Shown here: piece after piece, positions 3,001 to 15,144 of the stretch
Numbering within the stretch: position 1 is the stretch's first letter
Layout of the letters: each line of letters opens with the position of its first letter
Virus record (IMG/VR): IMGVR_UViG_3300017777_006778
Location: 1 to 45,590 of that record
DNA length: 45,590 nt
Direction: 5' to 3' (one strand)
Source of the DNA: a virus
Taxonomy: Duplodnaviria; Caudoviricetes
Position numbers and translations under genes: made by a program
The notes under the pieces: generated by a model
What the model was told of the DNA's origin: nothing
The model's database searches: none
Seen by the model: only the letters and a program-made list of their open reading frames with translations

Positions 3001-6000
3001 GGCCGCTGCCGTGTAGAGCCAGGCCCGCAGAGCGGGCAGGTCGTTGAGGTCGACGATGGGGATGCCGGCACGTCCGGCCACGGCCGCCATCGCGGCCGAC
3101 GCCCGGCCAGGCCCGCCCAGGCGCCGGTCGGCCGTGGTGAGGTCTTCGATGCGGCTGGCGATCTCGGCCTTTGCGCCCTGCACGCGGCGGCGTAGGACGT
3201 TGAGCTCGGTCTTTACCCACTCCGGCATGTTCGGATTGCGGGCCTCAATCGGCAGTACATCGAAGGCAAGGTTGGTGAGCGCGTCGTTGATCCTGCCCTT
3301 GATTGTGTTGAGCGGAACCGTCTCCGGCGCCTGCCCGGTCTCGGAGATGCCAGGCGTGAGCGGGGACGCGCGGTGCTTCGTCAGCCACCACATGAGGTAG
3401 GCGCCCGTGCTGTACTGCTCGAGCTTGGCCTCGTAGGACATGGAGCCCGAGCGCGCGTCCTTGAGCGCGTCGACCACCGTGTTCCAGTGCGCCGTGGTGA
3501 GGTACTGCTGGAGGTCTGGCACCTGCATGATGCGAAGGTTCGGCGGAAGGTCGGAGGCCCACCCGCTCTGTACAAGATGGTCGATGAGGATGCGCACCCG
3601 GGTGGCCTGCACCACGTCAAGGTTGAGCGTCGTGGCCGCCGTCGTTGTCGAGGCGACTCCGCCCACCGGCGCGCCAGCATCCCGGCGGCGCTGAGCGACA
3701 AGCTCGGGCAGGTCGCCGAGCATCTGGTTGACGCGGGCCTCGATGCCAGCGAGGCGCGCGCGGGGCACAGACGTGCGATGCCCGTTCTTGACGTAGTCCC
3801 AGGACCCGCGGTCCCGGAGTTGCTTTGCGCCGATGTGCGACTGAATGCGCGCCTGGAGGTCAATCGCGTCGTAGACGGTCTGGTCGGGCCGGTAGCCGAG
3901 CGCGACGTTGAGCTCCTCGCGGGTCATGTTCGGCTTGGCGCGGTAGCGGCGCGCCTCGAAGCCGTAGGGGTTTGCCGGGTCGACGGAGGCGGGCTCGGCG
4001 GCACGGCCAACGATCGACGCCTCCTTCAACGCGGACGGGCTGCGTTCCACCTGCCGCGACGGGGCTCCGACGGGGGCGCCAGCGGCGGCAGCGCGGACGC
4101 CGGGGCCGGTCGCCCGCGCGTAGTCCTGGTGCTGGGCGAGGCGGTCTACGCCGTCAGTTCCTTCGGCAGCCCCGCCTCGAGCTCCCCCGGCATCGGGTCC
4201 GGCGGGCCCTCTGACCCGAACGCGAAGGTCAGGTACCTCTCCCTGGAAAGAGGAATCCCACGCGCCCGCATCCACTCGACGAGCGGATCTGGCCCAGTCA
4301 GGGGGAGAGATTCCGTCGGCGAGGCGGAGGATTTCAGCACGGGCGTCGTCAAGGGAGAGCTTCCGGTTTCGGTACGCATTCCACACCGCCGCAGTGGAGT
4401 CAAGGTTTTTGGACTGCGACTTGAACGACGCCGTAAACAATCCGCGCGACGCCTCCCAGGTGATCGACTGGAGCTCGCGCGGCAGCACGCCGCGCTTCTT
4501 TGCCGCGCGCCGATACGCCTCGGCGTAGATCCCGTAGGTGCCCTTGGATCCGAACACCGAACTGCTCGACGCGCCGCCGGATCCGAAGTTGTGGAGAACC
4601 TCCGGAGAGGTTCCGCTCAAGGGCCGGAGCAGGGCCGACGCCACGGCATGCGTGTCAATCGTTACGTCGCCATGCGTGCTTGCCGGATCGAACATGTTGT
4701 TGTAGAAGTTCCTGACCTTGTGCTGCTCGCCGAGCTTTGCACTCACGTTGGCGATTGCGCCGTCGCCGTAGATCGCGACCGCCTTGGCGATGTCGGGGAA
4801 CGGGCTCCACGCCACGCTGCTGCGGGTCTTCCCGTCCCCGTTCATCGCCCAGCCGGTGAACGCCCCCTCCGGGTCGGACACGCGGTACGAACGCGGGTTG
4901 TACGTCTGGTCGTACACGCGGATCCACACGGCTTTGTCGTAAACGTCAGCGAGCTCGCCGAGAGAGCGCCCTGCCGTCCCGCTAATGAACTCTGCGTATT
5001 CCGGGCCCAGAATGCGGTTGGCCGTGGCCGTCATCGCGTCATCCCACGGAACGTCACGCTTCGTCGTGAGCGTATCCATGACGCGCTCCGCAAGACTGAC
5101 GTTCATGTACCAGTCCTTTTGCGGAGAGAGCACGGCAATCATGCCGGCCACCTGCACGTCGGTCAGCGCGTAGCGCTCGCTCCACCGGTCTACGATAGCG
5201 CGCGCGCCGTCGTACCACCGACGACTGCGCTCGCGCGTTTCCGCCGGGACCTGGTCGTAGAGCCAGACGAGGTTGTCCGCTACGTGCGCGATGAACGCCT
5301 CGGCTTGAGCGTCGACCGAACCGCCGCCCTTGATAGGCCTGCTGTTGGGGTAGGCGTCGATCAGGTCCATGTTCTTGGCGAACGCGACGGAATCCATCTT
5401 GGCGGCGTCCAGGCCGACGAGCAGCATGGACTCCAGCGGGTTCTCCAGCGCCTTCTTGGCGGTGGGCACCCGCGTGCTCACGCGTTGGTAGAGAACGTCA
5501 GACCGCTCCAGCAACGGTCCAAACACGGCCTGCGTGAGCGCCGGCGGCATCCCGTTCCCGATGATCGTCGTGGCGGTGACGCGCGACGCCGGGAGCGCGT
5601 AGCTGTCCGGCAGCCCGGTGATGCGCGCCATGGCTCGCGGGGTCACAACCTTCGCTTGGCCGCCCGGCAGGATGATGATGTGGCGCTCCTTGGGCGTGGC
5701 CTTGATCGTCGGGGCAGGGCCGCCGGCGATGGCGTAGGGGACGTTTCCGCTATTGACGCTGCCGCCCATGACGATGAGGGGCTTCGCGGGCGAGCGCCAC
5801 TCGATGCCCATACCGTCCAGCCTGGAGGCCATCCAGGGCGGGACCGAGGCGTCGGGGAGGGTGTCGGCCACGTCCGACACGGTGCCCCACCAGTCGGCCG
5901 CCGGCACCTTCGTCGGGGGCGGCGGCAGGTCGCCGTCGCGCACCGCGCGGAGGAGCATGCGGGTCCGGACGGTCGGCGCGCCGTAGTCGGCCGCGTTGTA

Positions 6001-9000
6001 GTTGGCCACGTCCCAGGTGTACGCCTGGCGGGTGAGCTCGTCGGTGACGGCGCGCATGGCGTCCGACTTTTCGTAGGCCGCGACGTTCTCGAGGGTGAAC
6101 ACGCGCGGACGCACCTGCGCCAGCGCGCGCGCCGTGGCCCGCGCGGTCTCCATGTCCAGCGGCTGCTCGCCGTTCACGAGCGACTTGGCGTCGGTGAAGT
6201 TCTTGCACACCGGCGAGGCGTGTAGGTACTCGGCCCCTTCTGCTCCGGAGAGGTCAACGTCCTGCACGCGCTCTACGCGGACGTGGTCTCCGTGCACGGT
6301 GCGGTAGTGCTCGCCGATCGCCTTGTCGGACTCGACGGCGAACATCGGCGTGATGAGCCCTCGCAGCCCTTCCTCAACGAGGCCTCCGCCGGAGAACAGG
6401 GTGGCCGTACGGACGGGGCCAGTGCGCTGGTAGAGGATGTCCGGGTCCGTCATGTCGAACGTGCCGCGATTCCCCGTGGCCGACTTCACCTGCTCCGGCG
6501 CAAACACTACCCAGTGATCGGTCCATCCTGCGTACCGTGCGCCACGGCTTGCGAAGACCTGCTCCGCGTCGATGACGATCCCGTCGAACCCGAGGCGGCG
6601 GTACACGTCCTGGAGGAACTGCCCCGGTCCCGAGTTGTCGCCGTTCTCCGTCATCCAGTTGCCACCGCCGATCGAGCGCGCGATCCGCTCAAGTTCGGCT
6701 GCGCTGACCGTTCTGTCGGACGCGTCCAACGAGCCGATGATCTCACCCGCCAGACCCTGCCCGCTGTATCCAGCGGACACGGCTTCGATCGCCGACACGG
6801 CATCCGACATCTTGATGCTCGTGACCTGGCCGGGGCGTAGATCCAGCGGCTTGGCCACATGCAGGTAGACCGGCATGACGGCGCCGTTGTTGGGCCCCGC
6901 CACGTCTTGCTCTGCGGCCCAGCCAGCCACCTCCAACAGGAGGGCTTCTCCCGCTGCGCTGTATTCGGGGTCGGCCACGGCCTGTTCAAGACGAGCGGTA
7001 TCTGCGGCACGACGTGGATGTGCTGCCGACCACCTGGCCACCAAGGCAGCGGCAGCGTCGTCGTCGTCCCAGGCTGACATCCACTCCTCTGCGCGGAGGT
7101 CGATCCGAGCAGAGATGTCCGGCCCCATCCGCGTCGCGTAGTGGTCAGATGCGTCCTGCGCCGACGTCGTGAAGTACGCGCCGCGGCCGTGGTGATTCGC
7201 CTCCGTCCCGCTGGTCTCCTTGAACTCCGTGAAGTCGTGAGTGGTGCCGTGGTACACGCGGAGCGGCGCTCCGTTCCCGTGCACAACCTTCGAGGCGCCA
7301 AACCACTTCTTGAACGCAGGCAACGTCACCTGCGTCTGGTTCGACGGGGTCCAGACGTCGAACCCCTCCAGAGGGCCGCCCGGCGCAACGGCAGCCATCG
7401 CCTCCGCCTGGGTTGCAAAGGTCGCTTCGACCGCGTCGCCGTCCAGGCCTTCTACGATGCCCTGGCGGTATCCCACCAGGAACGGACCCTCAGCCGACTC
7501 CGCCATCAGCGTGTCGCCCTGCCGCGCCTTCGGCCGGCGCGGGTCCATGTCCGGCGCGACCGAGATCAAGCGGCCGCGCAGGGGGCGCCGCGCGTCTTGA
7601 ACGATGCCCTCCAGGTTGCCGGCCATGAGGTCTTCCACGATCGCGGGCACGGCGTCGATGCCGAACCACGCCACAATGCGGGCCCTCATCTTCTCGAGCA
7701 TGAAGCGCGCGGCGTCCATGACGGAGAGGGTTGCCGCATCCCACTGGTCGAGGCGCTTCTTTGCGTGGTCGGCGAAGCGCTCGGCGAACCACTCGTCCAC
7801 GTCTGTCCAGCGGTAGGAGCCGGAGTTGCCGCGGCCTACGTCGGTGAGGTGGCCGTTTGCGTCGAACCAGGTGGGATTGGCCTGGATCGCGGCGCGCCGC
7901 TCCTTGATGTACTGGCGGAGCAGGTTGGCCGCCTTGTCCTTCGGAAGCCACTGCGAGATGCGGTGGCCGATCTCGTGAGCCAGCGTGCGTGACGACACGC
8001 CCTTTTCAAAGGCGGACTTGGCCAGGGTGAGCACGTCGTTGGCGAAGTCGTAGGACCCCAGGGCGTTGCCCTTCTTGCCGACCTTCGCGCTGAGTTTGAA
8101 CTGCCCCCCGTTCAACGGGTGCCCCAGCATCTTCATCAACCGCAGCGCGTCGTCGACGTCGGTGTCGATGGCGACGCCGAACCGCTCCTCGGCAGAGAGT
8201 CGGGCGCGGATGGCGTCAGTGCCGGTGCGCTCGCTCCGCATAGGCGGGGCCGCGCGGACCTTCCTGGTCTCGTTCTCGAGGGTAACGCGCAGGATGTCCT
8301 CCGCGTCATAGAGCGCGTCACGCATAGCCACGGCGTCGCGCTCGTCGGAGAAGAACCCCGTTCGTCCGTACTGGTCGACGGCGTCGGCCTCCCGCCGGGC
8401 GAGCATCTCGATCCTCTTCACGATGGGGCGCACGCGCTTCTGGAGGCGCGCGGCGCGCTCGGGCCCAAGCTCCGGGTTCTGCTCCTCAAGCGCGGCCATG
8501 GCGTTGTCGACCAACCGGCTGGCGCGGCGCACCGACACCGGGGGCATCGGATCGTCGCGCTGGTAGAGGATGTTCGGGTCGTTCGGGTCGAAGGTGCCGC
8601 GGTTGTTCTGCGACTTCACCTGCTCGGGCTCGAAGGCGATCCAGACGCGGTGGGGGTCGGTGGCGGTGCGAGCGCCGCCGATGTGCGTGAAGCCGTCGTA
8701 CCCAGCGTCGCGCAGGATCGCGTTGATCTCGCTCTTGTCGATCACCCTCGACAAGGCGTAGTACACGTCCTCACCGGAGACCAAGACATGCGCGTCGGTT
8801 GCCTTGATGGCGTCATCAAGCGTTCCAAACGTCGTGCCATTGCGGACAAACGCCGAGCGATAGCGGCCGTCCACCGACTTCATCACGGGCCACCCGTTGA
8901 CCATCCAGGTGGTCGCCGAGACCTGCTTGACGCTGTGCTTGAGTACGGCCTTGATGGCGTCGACCTCTTGCGGCGCAAGGCGTTTCGCGGCGGCGTTTTC

Positions 9001-12000
9001 GATCGCATCCCGTACCGCGCCCGGCACCGCTGCGTCGAGGTCGAACGGGCGCTGCATGGAAAGGTACACTGGGAGCACCCCAGCTCCGCTCCGAGTCGGC
9101 TCGCGGTACCCTTCCAGAATGGCATCTGCTTTGGCGTACTGGGCCGGCGTAGCCCACGTCTCATTGCGTACGTCCTGCGTACGCTTTAGCTCCTTGAGCG
9201 CATTCTTGAAATGAAGGATACGGCCGGATTCTGGGAAGTTGCTGCCGTAATACCCCAGTTGCCACTTGACCTGCGGGTGCGACCCAAGCGCCTCGACGAC
9301 TACACGCTCTACGTCGGGCCGTGCAGCCGGCTCAATCACCTCGTCCCACTCCGGCATCATGCCCTGCTCAATCTTGGCATAGCCCTCACTCTTCACGGTG
9401 CCGGATTCATCTTCCCATCCACCCGCTACGCGGGGGTCCTCCGTGAAGTAGAGCCCCGGCCCAAAGAGAGCGTTGTTGTCCATCTTCTCCTTGGAGAAGG
9501 TGTCGAACCCGGCGCGCGTCGAGCCGTGAAAGACGATCTTGGGCTTACCCGTGTCCGGATCCACCACCTTGCTTTCCTTGAACCAGCGTTTGAACGCGGG
9601 CAGGTCCGGGTTGGTGAGCGGAGCGGTGGCCTCGTCCGGGAGGTCGGGGAGGATGTCGGACTGGAAGAAGCGGGTCGGCGGCGCCGCGGAAGGCGCGGCC
9701 GCTGGATCGATGACCACGGTGCCCTTCTCAAGCAACGCCCCAGCGAGCGAGTAGCGCGCGGGCTGCATCACGCGCTGCACCTCGGAGAACCGAGCGGGCG
9801 GCGTGGTGGAGGTGAAGGCCCCCTCGACGTTCTCGTACGTCAGGTCGAGGGGAATGACGTGGAGCTCGTTGCCGATCTGCTTGGACACGGTGCCCGCGGG
9901 GAGTCCCGCCCGCCCCGGCTCCCATCCCTGCTTGCGTAGGGCGTCGACCGAGACGATGCCACCGTTCTGCTGGGCGTAGTCGTAGTAGGCCCCGGCCGGG
10001 GCGCCGCGCTTCACGGGCGCCACCGCCGGTAGCGGGGCGTCGTCCTTGAACGTGGAGAGCGTTGGCGGTCCCGCCGGCTGGGCGGGGGGGCTCGCCTCGG
10101 GCATCGGACCAGCGGCGGCGGTGGCCTCGGCCACGCGCTGCTCCACGCGGGCCAGCATCGCCTCGGCGTACGGCAGGCCGCGCCCGCCCAGGCGCTTGTA
10201 GACGGTCTGGCGGATGCGGGAGTCCGAGATGCCGGCCTTCTCCTTCATCAGCGTGGAGGCCCAGTCCTTGAGCGCGGCCCGCTGCGCCTTCGGCTCCAGC
10301 GTGCGGATGCGCTCGATCTCCACGCGCGCCCAGGCGACGGTCTCCGGCGTCCAGGCCACCGTGGTCTCTGCCTCCTGGGACTTCTCCGGGAGCGCGGCCG
10401 CATCAGGGGTGGTCGGCTCGACTGCGGCAGGCTTCCGCTCGGCGGCGATGTCGAGGCGGCGCTCCACCTCGCGGAGCTCCGCGGCGACGCCGGGGTCGTC
10501 GTCGCTCTCGGCGAGCGCTTCGATGAGGCGGTCGCGCTCGTCAAGCAGGGCGGTGTCGCGCTCACGCTTTGCGGCGACGAACTCCTCGGGCATCGCCTCG
10601 GGCGCGGCCACCGGCGGAGGCGCGGCGGCGGGTGCGGGCGTGGCAGGCTTCGCCTTCGAGGCCGTCGGCTTCGCGATCACCGCGCGCGGGTTGGCCATGT
10701 TGATCGGGGGCGCCATCTCCTCGCCGCGGAGGGCGGCGGCGATGCGGTCGACGAAGCCTGGCATCACCCGCTCGAGGGTGCGGCGGCGATCCTCCTGGGC
10801 CGTGTCGCGCTCACCCGCCGCACGGGCGCGCTCGGCACGCACCGCGTCGGCCTGGGCAACCGACTCAGGGGAGGCCTTGCCCTGCACCGGCTCCGGCGAG
10901 GGCAACACGGTGCCCGACGGGGCCGGGCGCGCGCCGTCGGAGCGAACCCGCAGGTGCTTGTCGAACAGGCTGCGCGTCTCCACCGCCACGTCGTCGAGGA
11001 CGCCGTCGGCGTAGATGCCGGCGAGCACCTCGGACACGGCCCGGAAGATGCGATTGAGCCTGGCAAGGATGGCGCCGATGACGCCATCGCCCACGTTGGC
11101 CCGCACGAATCCGTCGCGGAGATAGGCTTCATACTGGCGGGCGAACCACTCCTCGGCCTCGACCGTCCACCGGCCCTGGGCGTCGGTGAATCCCTCGCGC
11201 CCCTTCACGTAGGCGTCAACCCCCGCCATCTCGGCCGGCTTGATGAGCCGGCGGAGCAGGTGGCCGCTCTCGTGAAACACGGTGGAGAGGTCGGCCGTGG
11301 CGCCCAGCGCCACGATGGCTTCTCCGTCCCGCAAGAAGTCGGTGAAGTCGATGTAGCCCTTCGTGTCGGGGGCAAGGTCTTCGCCCTTGAAGCGCATGCG
11401 GCTGTAGAGGTCGTCCGCCTTCTCGAGTACGCCGGTACGAACAAGGCCCTCGGCCATGCGGTCCATCACGGCCAAGTAGAGGTCGACCTCGGCCGGCGTG
11501 TAGGCCACCTGCTTGCGCTCGGCCATTGACCGGAGCGCGTCACGCACGCGCTGGCGCGCCGTCGGCGCCTTGTCTGCCACACCCATCGACGGCGGGCGCG
11601 CCTTGGCGAGCTCCGCCTCTGCGTAGCGGACGGCTTCACGGAACGCGCCCTCGGCGTTCCGCAGCTTGATGGCTGCCTGCCGGAACCCCGCCGCCGCGCG
11701 CTTGGCCTTGTCGATGACCTTGACGGGCGGCATCGGCATGGCGGCGAGCTCGCTGACCTTGGCGAGGAGGAACGCGTCCGGCGAGACGCCGTCCGGCACG
11801 TTTACGTCGAGCCCGTACTCCTTGCCGATCGTGGTGAGCATGCCCTCGACGGATCCCAGGCGAGACGTGAGCACCTTGCGCGCGCTCGCCACCTGCTCGG
11901 CCGGCGCGTCAAGCGTGTCCAGCGCCACGCGTACGGCGCGCTGGTAGCGGTTCGGCGTTCCGGTGCCCTGGTAGTCGCCGGTCAGGGTGGCCAGCGGAGA

Positions 12001-15000
12001 GTCGTCCCCAAAGATGCGCCGGGCGAGCTCGATGACGCGGGTGTCCCCAGGCTTGCCGGGGACGCGCCGGGCCAGGCTGTCGATGCGACGCTCGAGCGCC
12101 ACGTCGTTGACCCACCGCACGGGGCGGCCGCGCTCGAAGTCAATGACGTTGCGCCACACCTGCTCCGGCTTAGCGTTGAGCAGGCGCTGGATCGCGGCGT
12201 CCATGTTCTTCGGGCGGAGGCCGTCGAGCACCGGGCCAACGAGGGGTGGGCACCTGTAGTAGCGGCCGCTCTGCGTCTGGACATCGGAGAGCGCCGACTG
12301 GAGCGCGGCGTGCGCCGTCATGCTAGACGGGTCGATGCCCCAGTGCTCACAGAGCAACGCGAATGCTGCTCCCATGCGCGCGTGCGGGTCCTTCACGTTG
12401 GTGACCGTCGGCGGGAGCACGCCGAGCGGCGCGCGCTCCTCGGCCGCCGCGACGATGAAGTAGGACTCCGCCTTGTCGGCAACCTGCGGGCGGCCTGGGA
12501 ACACCTCGGGCGCCGGGGGAACGTCTCGTCCGACGGCAGGCGGGCGGCGCTCGCCTGCGGCCTCAAGCCCCTCGGCCTCGGTCATCTGGCCGATCCCGTT
12601 CTCGTCGTAGCCAAGGGCGCGGAGGCGGTCGGCCGTGCGGGGGTGCACACCGGACGTCGCGAGCGCCGACGCGCCGACCGATGCGCGCACCGCGTTGGCG
12701 ATCTGCACTGGCTCGATGCCGAGCGTGGAGTTGTACTCGCCTTGCACCTGTGCGTTGAACGTGTCCTGCCCCTGCGTGGCGTCTGCAAACACGCGTCCCG
12801 CCAGGCCTTGCCGCATGGCGTCGCGATAGATCAACGCCTGCACCACGGTGGTCGGATCCACGTCGGTGTTGTCCACGTCACCGCGGCGCGCCACGCCGAG
12901 CCCCTCCTGATACGCCGCGTCCCCGCGAAGCGCGCGATCGACCACGCGCGGGAATACTGCCGCTGCACCTGTAGTGAGCGCCGCGGGCGTGGTCATCCCG
13001 CCGGCCTGCCCAGCCCGGACGCCCGTGTAGAAGTTCGTGCTGCCTGTACGCACGCCGCCAAGCACAGCAGGCGGCAACTTGTCAAGGGGCAGGAGCAGGT
13101 CGCCGAACATGCCGGCCGTCACGGTCGCGTTCCACATCTCGCCGCCCTGCATCCAGGTGGCCCGAGTCTCCGGGTCAAGCCCGGGTGCGCCCCACGCAAT
13201 CGTGTCGTTGAGGTACATGACCTCGGTGGCCAGGCTGTCTCCCTGATCGAGCGTCGTGACGTAGTCGTGCATGCCGCTCTCGGTGAGGAGCGGTGGCAGA
13301 ATGGCGTTCCACCACGTCTGCTTGACGTTGGACGGCGCGTAGCGGCGGCGGTAACTCTGCGCCCCGTAGAGCTCGGTAGCGGTCTGGTCGGCGAGGCGCC
13401 CGAGCCATGTAGTAGCAACACCGCCCAGAAGCGACCCTCCGACGCGCATGGCGCGGCCAACGGCCGTCTCCTTGATGGCGCCCTGCCGGTCCATCGTGTA
13501 ATTGATGCTGGTGAGCGCCTCAAGCGCGGGGCTGATCAGGGTCTGGGCAGCCGATCCGTAGGCCCCCACGGTCGCAAGGGTCGCGCTCCCGTAGGAACGG
13601 TTGCCCATGGCCACGTCGTACGCAGTGCTCGGCACTCCCAGCACCGAGCCGCCGACCTGCGATGCAGCCGCGACGATGGCAGCCGGGATGCCGTCCACAA
13701 TCTCCGCCCCAGAGCGCAGTTGCGGCGTCTCAACGGGCACGGCGTCGGCAATAATCGTTCGGACCATGCGGGAGACTAAGCTCTTGCTTTCCGGGCTCAC
13801 GTCGAGAATGGGCTCGCCAGCTTTCCGCCCCACCAGCGCCGCAGCCATCCCCGTCGGACTCCACGAGGGCATCGCGTTGATGGCCTCAACAGTTCCCAGG
13901 AGCATGCCCGCGTTGCGGCTCTCAGCCGACTGCATCGCCTGTCCAAGCGAACGCGCGGACTCAAACGACGATTCGCTCATCGCCTTTGCGTACGTCGACC
14001 ACACCTCCGGGACCGGGTCAAATGCCATGATCTGCATGCCGCGAGCATTGTTGGAGTCTGCGAACGCCGCAAGTCCGTCAAGCCCCAGGTGTCTAAGACC
14101 GGACGCCGCAGCACCCAGGGCCGTGTGGTTGATGGACATAGGCATGTCGACGTTGATGTCTTTCCACAGGTCGATCGCTTCTCCAACAGCCGAGGACACG
14201 CCGCGGCCGATGTCGACGACGCCCTGACCCAACCCCGTCTCTGCGTTGAACGTCAGATTGACTGCGGACTGGCCGGCTGCGGTCTCCGACGCGCCAAGAG
14301 CGGGCGCGTCGCTCAGCTCCGTGTCGCGCATGGCCAAGACGGCGGTGCGCGCTTGCTCGGCAGACTTGCCCTCACGGATCAGGCGGGCCGTCTGGATGCT
14401 GCGGCGATCCTCGACGGTGAGTTCGGAGCGCGGCTGGGGTGGCGTGGCGTCGGACAGAGGCGCGCGGGCGCCGACGCCGTACTCCTTCTTGGTGACCGCG
14501 TCGATACCGCGCGCCACGAGGCCCTGCGGGTCGAGGGCACCGGACTCGATGCCCTTGCGACGCGCGGCCTTGATTGAATCGTCGAGGTTGACCGACGCTC
14601 CAGAGTCCGGCGTCGAGGTCTTCATGCGCTGCGTCATCTCGAGCGCGCGCAGTTCGGCGCCGTCGCCTCGGCCCGCCGCGCGCTCCCGGTCGACGTAGGC
14701 CTTGCGCGCCTGCACCTCAAGCGCCGGGTCGACAACGGGCGTCTCCAACGCCGGAGAGACGCCGCCGGAAAGTTGCGCCGACGTCGTAGCCGGCAGGTAG
14801 GCGCTTCGCGCAGGCGCGGTCTGGCTCTCGTCGAGGTTGCGCTCCATGCGCGCAAGCGCCTCGTCCGTCGTTTCGGCACCGGTGCGAGCGGCTTCCGGCT
14901 GCGCCCCGGCGCCTTCTACTGTCTCCTCCATCCGGAGTAGCGCCTCGGCCTGCTCGGGGCTCAAGCCGTACTGGTCCTGGGCAGCTCGGACAGCACCGGC

Positions 15001-15144
15001 GCGAGCGACTTCCGGCTGCGCGTCGGCGCCTTCTACTGCCTCCTCCATCCGGAGCATTGCCTCGGCCTGCTCGGGGCTCAGGCCGTACTGGTCCTGGGCA
15101 GCGCGGACGGCGGCGGCGCGGGCGGCTCCGGTAGGGATCGGCAT
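10..15144 (-). CDS. Giant (5044 aa) polyvalent virion/DNA-ejection protein with multiple enzyme cassettes
   Basis: Uninterrupted ORF with strong GC3 bias, last gene of the virion block after ejection-type genes. Contains 2 HExxH motifs, 2 ART-PolyVal-like domains, C5-MTase motifs and an HhH-glycosylase-like domain. The C-terminal segment TFDYTN...VMFWMYQRRAIDLAVWALYKHPDRV resembles C-termini of large phage ejection/polyvalent proteins. Confidence 0.93.
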   Translation of the reverse strand: MPIPTGAARAAAVRAAQDQYGLSPEQAEAMLRMEEAVEGADAQPEVARAGAVRAAQDQYGLSPEQAEALLRMEETVEGAGAQPEAARTGAETTDEALARMERNLDESQTAPARSAYLPATTSAQLSGGVSPALETPVVDPALEVQARKAYVDRERAAGRGDGAELRALEMTQRMKTSTPDSGASVNLDDSIKAARRKGIESGALDPQGLVARGIDAVTKKEYGVGARAPLSDATPPQPRSELTVEDRRSIQTARLIREGKSAEQARTAVLAMRDTELSDAPALGASETAAGQSAVNLTFNAETGLGQGVVDIGRGVSSAVGEAIDLWKDINVDMPMSINHTALGAAASGLRHLGLDGLAAFADSNNARGMQIMAFDPVPEVWSTYAKAMSESSFESARSLGQAMQSAESRNAGMLLGTVEAINAMPSWSPTGMAAALVGRKAGEPILDVSPESKSLVSRMVRTIIADAVPVETPQLRSGAEIVDGIPAAIVAAASQVGGSVLGVPSTAYDVAMGNRSYGSATLATVGAYGSAAQTLISPALEALTSINYTMDRQGAIKETAVGRAMRVGGSLLGGVATTWLGRLADQTATELYGAQSYRRRYAPSNVKQTWWNAILPPLLTESGMHDYVTTLDQGDSLATEVMYLNDTIAWGAPGLDPETRATWMQGGEMWNATVTAGMFGDLLLPLDKLPPAVLGGVRTGSTNFYTGVRAGQAGGMTTPAALTTGAAAVFPRVVDRALRGDAAYQEGLGVARRGDVDNTDVDPTTVVQALIYRDAMRQGLAGRVFADATQGQDTFNAQVQGEYNSTLGIEPVQIANAVRASVGASALATSGVHPRTADRLRALGYDENGIGQMTEAEGLEAAGERRPPAVGRDVPPAPEVFPGRPQVADKAESYFIVAAAEERAPLGVLPPTVTNVKDPHARMGAAFALLCEHWGIDPSSMTAHAALQSALSDVQTQSGRYYRCPPLVGPVLDGLRPKNMDAAIQRLLNAKPEQVWRNVIDFERGRPVRWVNDVALERRIDSLARRVPGKPGDTRVIELARRIFGDDSPLATLTGDYQGTGTPNRYQRAVRVALDTLDAPAEQVASARKVLTSRLGSVEGMLTTIGKEYGLDVNVPDGVSPDAFLLAKVSELAAMPMPPVKVIDKAKRAAAGFRQAAIKLRNAEGAFREAVRYAEAELAKARPPSMGVADKAPTARQRVRDALRSMAERKQVAYTPAEVDLYLAVMDRMAEGLVRTGVLEKADDLYSRMRFKGEDLAPDTKGYIDFTDFLRDGEAIVALGATADLSTVFHESGHLLRRLIKPAEMAGVDAYVKGREGFTDAQGRWTVEAEEWFARQYEAYLRDGFVRANVGDGVIGAILARLNRIFRAVSEVLAGIYADGVLDDVAVETRSLFDKHLRVRSDGARPAPSGTVLPSPEPVQGKASPESVAQADAVRAERARAAGERDTAQEDRRRTLERVMPGFVDRIAAALRGEEMAPPINMANPRAVIAKPTASKAKPATPAPAAAPPPVAAPEAMPEEFVAAKRERDTALLDERDRLIEALAESDDDPGVAAELREVERRLDIAAERKPAAVEPTTPDAAALPEKSQEAETTVAWTPETVAWARVEIERIRTLEPKAQRAALKDWASTLMKEKAGISDSRIRQTVYKRLGGRGLPYAEAMLARVEQRVAEATAAAGPMPEASPPAQPAGPPTLSTFKDDAPLPAVAPVKRGAPAGAYYDYAQQNGGIVSVDALRKQGWEPGRAGLPAGTVSKQIGNELHVIPLDLTYENVEGAFTSTTPPARFSEVQRVMQPARYSLAGALLEKGTVVIDPAAAPSAAPPTRFFQSDILPDLPDEATAPLTNPDLPAFKRWFKESKVVDPDTGKPKIVFHGSTRAGFDTFSKEKMDNNALFGPGLYFTEDPRVAGGWEDESGTVKSEGYAKIEQGMMPEWDEVIEPAARPDVERVVVEALGSHPQVKWQLGYYGSNFPESGRILHFKNALKELKRTQDVRNETWATPAQYAKADAILEGYREPTRSGAGVLPVYLSMQRPFDLDAAVPGAVRDAIENAAAKRLAPQEVDAIKAVLKHSVKQVSATTWMVNGWPVMKSVDGRYRSAFVRNGTTFGTLDDAIKATDAHVLVSGEDVYYALSRVIDKSEINAILRDAGYDGFTHIGGARTATDPHRVWIAFEPEQVKSQNNRGTFDPNDPNILYQRDDPMPPVSVRRASRLVDNAMAALEEQNPELGPERAARLQKRVRPIVKRIEMLARREADAVDQYGRTGFFSDERDAVAMRDALYDAEDILRVTLENETRKVRAAPPMRSERTGTDAIRARLSAEERFGVAIDTDVDDALRLMKMLGHPLNGGQFKLSAKVGKKGNALGSYDFANDVLTLAKSAFEKGVSSRTLAHEIGHRISQWLPKDKAANLLRQYIKERRAAIQANPTWFDANGHLTDVGRGNSGSYRWTDVDEWFAERFADHAKKRLDQWDAATLSVMDAARFMLEKMRARIVAWFGIDAVPAIVEDLMAGNLEGIVQDARRPLRGRLISVAPDMDPRRPKARQGDTLMAESAEGPFLVGYRQGIVEGLDGDAVEATFATQAEAMAAVAPGGPLEGFDVWTPSNQTQVTLPAFKKWFGASKVVHGNGAPLRVYHGTTHDFTEFKETSGTEANHHGRGAYFTTSAQDASDHYATRMGPDISARIDLRAEEWMSAWDDDDAAAALVARWSAAHPRRAADTARLEQAVADPEYSAAGEALLLEVAGWAAEQDVAGPNNGAVMPVYLHVAKPLDLRPGQVTSIKMSDAVSAIEAVSAGYSGQGLAGEIIGSLDASDRTVSAAELERIARSIGGGNWMTENGDNSGPGQFLQDVYRRLGFDGIVIDAEQVFASRGARYAGWTDHWVVFAPEQVKSATGNRGTFDMTDPDILYQRTGPVRTATLFSGGGLVEEGLRGLITPMFAVESDKAIGEHYRTVHGDHVRVERVQDVDLSGAEGAEYLHASPVCKNFTDAKSLVNGEQPLDMETARATARALAQVRPRVFTLENVAAYEKSDAMRAVTDELTRQAYTWDVANYNAADYGAPTVRTRMLLRAVRDGDLPPPPTKVPAADWWGTVSDVADTLPDASVPPWMASRLDGMGIEWRSPAKPLIVMGGSVNSGNVPYAIAGGPAPTIKATPKERHIIILPGGQAKVVTPRAMARITGLPDSYALPASRVTATTIIGNGMPPALTQAVFGPLLERSDVLYQRVSTRVPTAKKALENPLESMLLVGLDAAKMDSVAFAKNMDLIDAYPNSRPIKGGGSVDAQAEAFIAHVADNLVWLYDQVPAETRERSRRWYDGARAIVDRWSERYALTDVQVAGMIAVLSPQKDWYMNVSLAERVMDTLTTKRDVPWDDAMTATANRILGPEYAEFISGTAGRSLGELADVYDKAVWIRVYDQTYNPRSYRVSDPEGAFTGWAMNGDGKTRSSVAWSPFPDIAKAVAIYGDGAIANVSAKLGEQHKVRNFYNNMFDPASTHGDVTIDTHAVASALLRPLSGTSPEVLHNFGSGGASSSSVFGSKGTYGIYAEAYRRAAKKRGVLPRELQSITWEASRGLFTASFKSQSKNLDSTAAVWNAYRNRKLSLDDARAEILRLADGISPPDWARSARRVDAGAWDSSFQGEVPDLRVRVRGPAGPDAGGARGGAAEGTDGVDRLAQHQDYARATGPGVRAAAAGAPVGAPSRQVERSPSALKEASIVGRAAEPASVDPANPYGFEARRYRAKPNMTREELNVALGYRPDQTVYDAIDLQARIQSHIGAKQLRDRGSWDYVKNGHRTSVPRARLAGIEARVNQMLGDLPELVAQRRRDAGAPVGGVASTTTAATTLNLDVVQATRVRILIDHLVQSGWASDLPPNLRIMQVPDLQQYLTTAHWNTVVDALKDARSGSMSYEAKLEQYSTGAYLMWWLTKHRASPLTPGISETGQAPETVPLNTIKGRINDALTNLAFDVLPIEARNPNMPEWVKTELNVLRRRVQGAKAEIASRIEDLTTADRRLGGPGRASAAMAAVAGRAGIPIVDLNDLPALRAWLYTAAAPPVTAAPIPQRVRRDQPRVTPVTVQEIVQRRDLVQRTLIGNGGHRLDAETVDVLARLMQNPPAITREDAGHLFLKMHAALNAAKARGVEVLRAASGASGGKDKVANIIKGGEYSGVELDAYTAWHRGVVNGVDWWNAPRQPGSVANLVEQVLGVGTAVEVERWSFEIVAREYVGTLIDDFIDRLIDRDYVITARQLAESVDPNGPPRDVQAVAQFASDVHTAIKQILTGKDVELVGGYVGATVEEIAAGNYTLGPNGEFRGAFLEGKVNPTTMTPEVRRAAADLIARWRLIPDLGVERAGIHKGLGAADFNVINAAKDATNGQINLSAVLDNPQVATEATGLGASRIGRDALFPSELAAELEGLLETNAPVGEFFAGALVKDRDKAAVALRAYAEAKRMIAQHLIAGGPTLVAPLVAGAGALLISGSVPITTMVVGGLYAMTWLPPTMRYATNFMGAHLQAMLGIGAADTIRTLASPSIVRSAQVAVRESVRLTGLNNVVAAATSAAGMLLGGGKTDAEQRVIVTRDGRIFTVGDIVREAQARGLNGTQANYETLSGAAERIQKIVDTEPTASPNAKARALFRKVYGDNEIANNYRVFYESIDLYFRYAILIRSLEDGMDMATAVQRTLLTTFDYTNAANLDKFVNQGVMFWMYQRRAIDLAVWALYKHPDRVLGMVRFMRDQDKVSGAADDESETVPDYAQGRPALPIPGISNDGYLDVSNSGNTAKLKMMMPEPPTSTALNLLLDVAGLDVPGMASRLNPFFQQGINLAVNTGSEQDYYSFWRQRTAGDPRYFEIPPGFVAWDQGATGGVFSKFFGFYPSYKANDPYSNVQPGVGVHWYPKRFREWDAFRSLLPGVTTGMSILDRMDRADLPVGPELALEVTQAVDEEFGLGLKQEVATDYPGVDPVDAAPRQAAGGVVEIFSLLGVSTAPISSTVTARSAGQRAYAKAIEGAAKGAPEVFPDVEPTPPPGGTTGIQPKPAGIRPERNGITGGR
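4146..4379 (-). CDS. Small (~77 aa) protein nested in the +1 frame inside the giant gene
   Basis: ATG at 4379 preceded by GGCGGTG. Over about 4146-4295, 41/49 codons in this frame end in G/C versus about 27/50 in the giant frame (hand count). Translation DPLVEWMRARGIPLSRERYLTFAFGSEGPPDPMPGELEAGLPKEL is protein-like while the host frame turns R/G/A-rich. Start position uncertain. Confidence 0.7.
   Translation of the reverse strand: MRTETGSSPLTTPVLKSSASPTESLPLTGPDPLVEWMRARGIPLSRERYLTFAFGSEGPPDPMPGELEAGLPKELTA
4300..5480 (-). other. Domain of giant protein: HhH-GPD/EndoIII-like DNA glycosylase-related (DUF7178-like) cassette
   Basis: Motifs RWYDGA, IAVLSPQKDWYMN, KVRNFYNN, VTIDTHA (Asp-Thr-His as in the HhH-GPD catalytic region), PRELQSITW. 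Boundaries approximate; family recognised from memory. Confidence 0.65.
5500..6415 (-). other. Domain of giant protein: DNA (cytosine-5) methyltransferase cassette
   Basis: Ordered motifs I LFSGGG, II AVE, IV ASPVCK (Cys kept), VI LENV, NAADYGAP, VIII TVRTR, IX RAMARITGLP, X IIGNG. Confidence 0.88.
6424..7320 (-). other. Domain of giant protein: ADP-ribosyltransferase-like (ART-PolyVal) cassette 2
   Basis: PAFKKWFGASKVV...RVYHGT...GRGAYFTTS...VMPVYL...GFDGIV...WVVFAPEQVKSATGNRGTFD...DILYQ. Confidence 0.85.
7620..8100 (-). other. Domain of giant protein: zincin-like metallopeptidase (MPTase) cassette 2
   Basis: GSYDF...TLAHEIGH (7963-7977)...DEWFAE; boundaries approximate. Confidence 0.75.
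8557..9600 (-). other. Domain of giant protein: ADP-ribosyltransferase-like (ART-PolyVal) cassette 1
   Basis: PAFKRWFKESKVV...IVFHGS...FGPGLYFTED...VLPVYL...GYDGF...WIAFEPEQVKSQNNRGTFD...NILYQ. Confidence 0.85.
10990..11370 (-). other. Domain of giant protein: zincin-like metallopeptidase (MPTase) cassette 1
   Basis: KGYIDF...ADLSTVFHESGH (11260-11274)...EEWFARQYEAYLRDG; boundaries approximate. Confidence 0.8.
14884..15111 (-). repeat. 117-bp (39-aa) tandem duplication at the N-terminus of the giant protein
   Basis: AVRAAQDQYGLSPEQAEA(M/L)LRMEE(A/T)VEGA(D/G)AQPE occurs twice; gccgtactggtcctgggca at 14965 and 15082. Confidence 0.95.

Follow-up and report, generated by a model that had tools for sequence, protein, structure and literature searches.

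Polyvalent virion proteins of phages hold toxic-looking enzymes in the middle of their sequences, a position that leaves no room for the customary immunity gene downstream. This raises the question of how a phage might guard such an internal enzyme. We consider this question at one locus of the virus record IMGVR_UViG_3300017777_006778, which is near-complete (45,590 bases; 97% complete) and is analyzed here in full as the window. The largest gene of the window (15144-10, minus strand) encodes a giant polyvalent protein of 5,044 amino acids (aa), and within it a long-form DUF7178 domain of 401 aa (4294..5496, minus strand; Pfam E value, 3.9e-27) ends at an invariant Trp. Across the end of this domain, on the same strand but in the +1 frame, lies a nested open reading frame (ORF) of 77 aa that runs from an ATG at 4379 to a TAG at 4148-4146. 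Comparison with related sequences indicates that this ORF is a real gene under its own selection, and its product appears to be a small helical partner of the DUF7178 domain, in our judgment probably an inhibitor. Below, host gene and host frame denote the gene and frame that carry the domain, which in the window are the giant gene and the giant frame.

The first-pass annotation of this DNA had reported the nested ORF, with its ATG and a Shine-Dalgarno (SD)-like GGCGGTG, and our coordinates confirm it. Its hand count of codons ending in G or C (41/49 in the +1 frame versus about 27/50 in the giant frame) was reproduced over 4149-4295, where we obtained 41/49 and 27/49. With a codon model trained on this phage and applied in 40-codon windows along the giant gene, the +1 frame outscored the giant frame solely in windows starting at 4329-4224, out of all 5,044 codons, reaching a peak of +21 bits against a gene-wide mean of -55 bits (standard deviation, 16). 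The proposed switch of codon bias holds over the core of the nested gene (4295-4164), but not over its first 28 codons (4379-4296), which still favor the giant frame (8.6 versus -5.5 bits). The giant frame is open throughout the nested ORF, as had been noted, and the proportion of G or C at third codon positions (GC3) returns to about 0.9 past the nested stop.

A search of viral sequences yielded 80 loci with a DUF7178 domain (40 to 58% identity), of which 75 were kept after 5 lacking the domain end or its flank were dropped. A homologous +1 ORF is present at the domain end in 68 of the 75 complete loci and missing from 7. The ORF is nested in 48 of the 68 partner-bearing loci, where between about 100 and more than 1,000 further host codons follow, and lies behind a host stop in the other 20, where the host gene ends 1 to 16 codons past the last Trp. 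Homologues thus occur immediately downstream of the domain in both the free-standing and the nested form, which the first-pass annotation had proposed to check, and many of them were recovered by plain tblastn with the window peptide alone. The conserved core of the nested protein spans G29 to P72 (4164..4295, minus strand), with L50 and E66 invariant and G29, D31, Y49, and P72 nearly so. Its description as a compact acidic and proline-rich protein stands for proline (12 residues), but the acidity of the window protein is mild (10 Asp/Glu versus 7 Lys/Arg) and is clearer in the family, with means of 11.2 acidic and 5.3 basic residues and a net negative charge in 35 of 36 members.

The comparison of selection between frames, which had been proposed as a check, favors the nested gene. 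Uncorrected ratios of nonsynonymous to synonymous differences (pN/pS) were computed for 20 close pairs connected by a spanning tree; the domain gives 0.18, and the overlap gives 0.24 when read in the nested frame and 2.09 when read in the host frame. Sorted by host codon position, substitutions shift from 67% at position 3 in the domain to 60% at position 1 in the overlap, and in 32 of 33 comparisons a better alignment is obtained with the window's nested peptide than with its host-frame peptide. Read in the host frame, the nested gene gives an unconserved linker (4144..4293, minus strand), which is free of stops, being open in 48/48 nested viral loci. The chance that the host frame would stay open after synonymous recoding of the partner is 0.00 to 0.23 per relative and 0.32 for the window, and the 12 distinct host-stop loci carry 2 to 10 host-frame stops across the partner; together, these values suggest that the host frame is kept open in nested loci. 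Three outcomes named in advance as damaging to the nested gene, namely a lack of homologues, +1-frame stops in close relatives, and stronger amino acid conservation in the giant frame, did not appear.

These data also bear on the explanation that the ORF arose by chance in GC-rich DNA or through misassembly, which we regard as already refuted and to which we give a negligible probability. At 68% GC, the window contains numerous spurious ORFs, yet the homologues occur in DNA of 33 to 64% GC and are under purifying selection. Contigs of three other sequencing runs show no indel over the nested ORF (X2 record 2 and X3 record 11 over its whole length and X5 record 16 over 4194-4357), which argues against an assembly slip.

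How the nested gene is translated can be approached through its start signal. The SD-like GGCGGTG (4390-4384, minus strand) lies 4 nucleotides (nt) before the ATG at 4379, and its duplex energy of -6.3 kcal/mol is within the range of the phage's own genes and better than those of the downstream candidates TTG 4352 (-3.5 kcal/mol) and GTG 4340 (+0.4 kcal/mol). A start at TTG 4352 (minus strand), giving a product of 68 aa, is possible in place of ATG 4379, as starts in relatives lie 4 to 18 codons before the last Trp of the domain and ATG 4379 lies 28 codons before it. In each of the 42 distinct relatives that have the partner, an ATG occurs no more than 20 codons ahead of the Trp, compared with 368 of 714 control windows, and 40 of the 42 combine it with an SD motif, compared with 29 of the 714; the ATG often stands directly after a +1 stop codon. 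Host residues could impose part of this signal, but the host residues on which the SD falls vary from lineage to lineage. No internal sigma-70 promoter was found for the nested gene. Taken together, the conserved signals make it likely that the gene is translated from its own ribosome-binding site.

The first-pass annotation had offered a programmed +1 frameshift as an alternative, in which frameshifting or slippage near the domain end would yield a truncated isoform ending in partner sequence. Nearly all overlapping copies are indeed offset by +1, no stop interrupts the +1 frame of the window for 107 codons upstream, and the domain end and the partner share one frame in locus L115, where the domain is otherwise broken, and in protein P0110, although these two joins may be sequence errors. 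The alternative is nevertheless poorly supported and, in our estimate, very improbable, in view of the conserved start signal and of copies that do not overlap the domain in this way: in L097, L105, L119, and L130 the partner is a gene of its own, located in L130 behind an additional in-frame domain some 450 nt beyond the DUF7178 end, and in L098 it lies on the opposite strand. No shared slippery sequence was apparent by eye in the upstream stretches of the viral loci.

The association of partner and domain extends beyond the loci from which the profiles were built. Among 35 further loci (32 from genomes and 3 from phage records), 19 have the partner, as a nested gene in 11, overlapping the host stop in 4, separate downstream in 2, on the opposite strand in 1, and in frame within a broken copy in 1; 3 of the 16 without it are fragmentary domain matches. 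In the reverse direction, a search with a nine-codon partner motif, 7 contigs of which overlap the viral domain search, returned 48 loci, 47 of them partners, and 46 of these 47 sit behind the domain (32 nested and 14 not), the remaining one having only 54 nt of upstream flank. On a quick domain tree, used descriptively and with no direction of change inferred, the nested, free, and lacking states change 6 times, and the nested state is the commonest and is spread over the tree.

A profile of the partner matches 1,879 cluster representatives (E value of ≤0.001; 50% clustering), the best 150 of which are 45 to 199 aa long. The expectation that gene callers would miss the nested gene was borne out in phage record OP947163, in which the nested copy is left unannotated; free copies are annotated as hypothetical proteins. 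The partner matches no Pfam or NCBIfam family, gives only weak and scattered matches to PHROG (best E value, 0.0036; at most 5 of 36 members), and has no usable match in the ESM Atlas. Matches to mycobacteriophages by tblastn (E values of 0.7 to 8) were set aside; the two contexts inspected hold hypothetical and structural neighbors, and those neighbors were not scanned for DUF7178. Two proteins, P0090 and P0092, each have two tandem partner copies. Apart from DUF7178, the host proteins vary in domain content, and domains seen beside the same cassette include a DUF3293/S-adenosylmethionine (SAM)-lyase-like domain (L105), InPase, zeta-toxin-like, and LPD38 domains (L002), and a weak GGDEF match (L001). 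L097 and CRP-738 gp40 lie directly behind the portal gene.

The nature of the DUF7178 domain itself is suggested by its predicted structure, which is modeled with confidence from the domain alone (predicted local distance difference test [pLDDT], 93.8). In a fold search of 48,161 chains, ranks 1 to 22 are all helix-hairpin-helix (HhH)-type glycosylases or the queuine salvage glycosidase (DUF2419). The predicted fold resembles the HhH-GPD enzymes Tm1821 of T. maritima, an 8-oxoG glycosylase (3n0u; Z score, 8.5), AGOG (1xqp; 6.9), and EndoIII (5.3 to 6.6), as well as the DUF2419 enzyme (7ugk; 8.2). It differs from the HhH-GPD enzymes in its low sequence identity to them (7 to 13%), in a large insert between two DUF7178 stretches, and in being embedded in a virion-module protein, and the Pfam HhH-GPD family (PF00730) matches none of 41 domain members. 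Lys260 (4717..4719, minus strand), where the second helix of a helix-turn-helix begins, and Asp281 (4654..4656, minus strand), in a D-T-H motif, are invariant along with that motif in 68/68 domain clusters (70% identity). The order of Lys and D-T-H is the same in EndoIII-type proteins, with a Lys-Asp spacing of 18 there and 21 here (placement by eye), and such Lys and Asp residues are the catalytic residues of bifunctional glycosylase/lyases. On the basis of these models and alignments, the long form of DUF7178 is predicted to have an HhH-GPD glycosylase-like fold, with Lys260 and Asp281 as the predicted catalytic pair of a glycosylase/apurinic-apyrimidinic (AP) lyase. Short free-standing look-alikes of about 200 aa, about half the domain length, occur in Synechococcus phage S-CBP42 and Salinibacter phage M31CR41-2, and they may lack the insert that bears much of the predicted partner patch.

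Cofolding of domain and partner with alignments, another check that had been suggested at the outset, gave a complex score of 0.92, compared with 0.05 for the best control. The mark set for this score was reached by 116 of 157 solved pairs and 2 of 215 mismatched pairs, counts that are only a rough guide with custom alignments. The runs share at least 88% of contacts, and the partner has a pLDDT of at least 76. The partner is predicted to be all-helical, and its fold has no solved look-alike in the fold search (best Z score, 2.9). A sequence search of solved structures with alignment A2 gave no match, and with no solved relative of either chain found, recall of a known complex by the model is unlikely. 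In the model, the two partner helices make their tightest contacts with domain residues 184-189 and 232-241, the interface includes P125, Q126, G256, K260, D281, T282, V300, and F304, and the acidic tail of the partner places the invariant Glu (E66 counted from ATG 4379; E57 from 4352) near domain residues 294-296. The partner is thus predicted to bind across the putative active-site cleft at Lys260 and Asp281.

Such a placement would suit an inhibitor that keeps the glycosylase-like domain off and is made together with it from the same mRNA, which is the explanation that we favor with moderate confidence. Under this model, the partner would be cotranslated from the mRNA of the giant gene and would block the domain throughout synthesis and packaging of the giant protein, protecting the producing cell's DNA against base excision. 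Once injected, the enzyme would become active, its target being the DNA of the host or of a competitor, or else adducts carried by the phage DNA that enters the cell. The first-pass annotation had proposed a cognate inhibitor or immunity protein; the predicted binding across the putative active site agrees with that proposal, but the partner is not obligatory, as set out below.

Several observations weigh against this explanation. The fold match is moderate (best Z score, 8.5; root mean square deviation, 3.9 Å; 182 residues aligned); Foldseek against the PDB returned no match at an E value of ≤0.001, the AGOG rows having the highest probabilities (0.57 and 0.51), and hhalign of the domain to 4 EndoIII-type and 9 HhH proteins gave no match (probability, 0.1). 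Predicted interface columns are no better conserved in clusters with the partner than in those without it (difference of 0.23 versus 0.40 elsewhere; permutation P value = 0.85), and a predicted contact does not separate an inhibitor from a cofactor. No detectable partner is present in 17 of the 68 domain clusters, and all 17 keep K260 and D-T-H; this set was enriched for partner-bearing loci by the motif search, so that the true partner-lacking share is probably higher. Either the domain is tolerated without a partner or it is guarded otherwise. Immunity genes are often found alone, whereas no orphan partner was seen. Finally, the window has an atypical SD, and the gene of its nearest relative starts 10 codons downstream of the position of ATG 4379.

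A rival explanation is that the partner truly binds the domain but is a helper rather than an inhibitor, such as a folding chaperone, a specificity subunit, or an adaptor for loading into the virion. An accessory subunit would fit a partner found with the domain in 46 of 47 cases and never seen without it, the domain-bearing host proteins sit among virion genes, and the tightest predicted contacts lie beside the catalytic pair rather than on it. However, K260, D281, and the SPQ motif are also within the predicted interface, the domain is confidently modeled by itself, the partner-lacking clusters manage without help, and the family is acidic in the manner of cleft-blocking DNA mimics. We therefore consider a helper role rather unlikely. 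Less probable still is that the gene is real but linked to the domain by operon history alone, with a false complex and a product that acts elsewhere, on a host protein or another domain of the polyprotein. The lack of a co-conservation signal at the predicted interface would agree with this, as would the mismatched pairs that passed the complex model and the fact that blindly picked neighbors sometimes pass. Against it, the complex score far exceeds that of the controls, and the linkage persists in all four layouts, whether the partner is nested, overlapping, set off by an additional domain (L130), or on the opposite strand (L098), and across host proteins that differ in their other domains.

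Some partner-lacking loci hold other candidates at the same position. Acidic, ATG-started +1 ORFs occur at the partner position in four of them (L104:1246-1488, L107:5058-5258, L112:4200-4427, and L079:4154-4333), and L117 has a broken look-alike of the L107 ORF. None of the four matches the partner family, that of L079 scoring slightly above shuffled sequences, but over the N-terminal overlap alone. In six others (L039, L083, L093, L095, L099, and L108), one conserved domain, seen in no partner-bearing locus, directly follows DUF7178 in frame; it has no Pfam match in the four tested, and by eye it recalls what we take to be SAM-lyase-like motifs. Judging from sequence and position, both the acidic ORFs and the following domain may be substitutes for the partner.

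If inhibitor and enzyme form a unit, the overlap could also explain how they come to lie within a polyprotein. Because the partner would start in the +1 frame within the last codons of the domain, host stops would be droppable and the partner DNA could be read as a linker, so that enzyme and inhibitor could occupy an internal position in a polyprotein and be exchanged together as a single in-frame cassette. Variation among strains supports such behavior. Contigs X2 record 3, X5 record 15, and X6 record 23 match the window over 3700-4143 (or 4083-4143) and then continue into unlike sequence, placing a cassette edge at 4143..4144, three bases past the nested stop. By hand translation in the giant frame, the 30-base loose end past 4143 gives ten codons, none of them a stop. 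Run X6 has a depth of 20 over 3700-4143 and none over 4151-4437, and it holds 0.48 of the words of 3500-6000, a value that would fit a strain in which both flanks are shared and the cassette is absent. The three studies with the breakpoint may represent one habitat. The glycosylase-partner cassette thus appears to be polymorphic in the population, and the breakpoint supports the view that enzyme and partner act as a single cassette. A search for the strain allele found no relative of the downstream part of the protein in viral contigs, and an exact search with the flanks returned the window's own contig (L167) and no other, with no match among viral contigs. The first-pass annotation had inferred that a two-gene module was captured whole into the virion polyprotein; such capture is plausible, but the nesting is not peculiar to this genome.

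The setting of the cassette is that of a polyvalent protein. The giant gene is the last gene of the structural module, and matches to terminase, major head, tail fiber, and internal-virion proteins lie upstream of it on the same strand. Its product has ART-PolyVal domains, a C5 methyltransferase, and DUF7178 among its Pfam domains, and its translation shows two HExxH motifs; with several conflict enzyme domains joined and encoded together with virion genes, it is a polyvalent protein. From this genomic context, the giant protein is presumably made late and packaged. The C5-cytosine DNA methyltransferase module (5509..6411, minus strand; PF00145 E value, 1.7e-18; phrog_116) is directly upstream of the cassette, and 1,427 codons of the giant gene follow the DUF7178 domain, making the enzyme internal. 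An LYQR motif recurs at three module junctions (8568, 6435, and 5493), two of which lie within a 48-nt repeat of 85% identity; the junctions are candidate recombination or processing sites. Two 117-nt tandem copies, 91% identical, occupy the start of the gene (14876-15109). The GC3 of the giant frame also dips at 7014-7104 and 9204-9264, possibly reflecting recent inserts in ART-PolyVal modules; the first of these dips was considered as a second nested gene and rejected, as the codon model gives the other frames no support at either dip.

Parts of this arrangement have parallels in known systems. Rz1 of phage lambda is nested in the +1 frame within Rz, and its product works with that of its host gene, in lysis; the locus described here differs in holding what appears to be a mobile enzyme-regulator cassette inside a polyprotein. 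Ugi, p56, and SAUGI, in the accounts available to us, are small DNA mimics that block the DNA-binding cleft of uracil-DNA glycosylases, mostly those of the host. The partner family, which is net acidic and predicted from the model to contact the cleft, may act in a comparable way, but its predicted target is the phage's own HhH-fold enzyme, and it is predicted to be all-helical. No protein inhibitor of the HhH glycosylase superfamily was found in our literature searches, and nothing describing the DUF7178-partner pair was found in the literature searched, which excluded most subscription papers.

In the main text of the account of polyvalent proteins by Iyer et al. (2017; PMC5512222), cassette-like recombination is proposed for these proteins, and the window shares their giant multidomain virion-module protein, ART-PolyVal domains, methyltransferase, and HExxH motifs, while its relatives carry the LPD38, InPase, zeta-toxin-like, and GGDEF domains likewise found there. 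The passages considered describe no nested partner gene; the main text does not contain the words "glycosylase" or "overlap," and its two uses of "nested" refer to a hairpin fold. For MuF toxins, Jamet et al. (2017; PMC5576092) report, in the text available, a small downstream ORF at 89.4% of 191 toxin genes, and this plan of a phage head-module protein with a C-terminal enzyme and a small ORF next to it matches our 20 host-stop loci. In contrast, neither the window protein nor 30 host proteins have a MuF Pfam match, and the window has an internal, glycosylase-like enzyme and a small gene entirely contained in the host gene. The term DUF7178 was itself absent from the literature searched (with the same exclusion of most subscription papers), although the supplements of Iyer et al. 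and Jamet et al. may list the domain. In the Rpn host defense system, as far as the available text describes it, RpnS is the separately translated C-terminal domain of RpnL (Zhong et al., 10.1101/2023.05.02.539157). That system also places a gene within a gene, and RpnS blocks a DNA-acting enzyme, as the partner here is proposed to do; the partner differs in being out of frame, unrelated in sequence to its enzyme, and phage encoded. The functional logic of our pair would be like that of the MuF and Rpn pairs, but it belongs to neither, given the absence of a MuF domain, the internal enzyme, and the out-of-frame product.

The locus offers one solution to the guarding of an internal enzyme, in which the partner gene is placed in another frame and read through by the host frame. 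It provides a functional hypothesis for two large unnamed families, long-form DUF7178 and the partner family, in the form of a compact two-gene pair with named residues (K260 and D281 in the enzyme and E66 in the partner). It also provides a recipe for finding more hidden genes, namely a search for frame switches in codon bias within polyprotein linkers. More broadly, and only tentatively, we speculate that phages may inject an unrecognized HhH-fold glycosylase/AP lyase effector whose guard is an out-of-frame inhibitor inside the effector gene, with the +1 overlap making the pair a pluggable module. If this is true, other internal toxin domains of polyvalent proteins may hide immunity genes in the same way.

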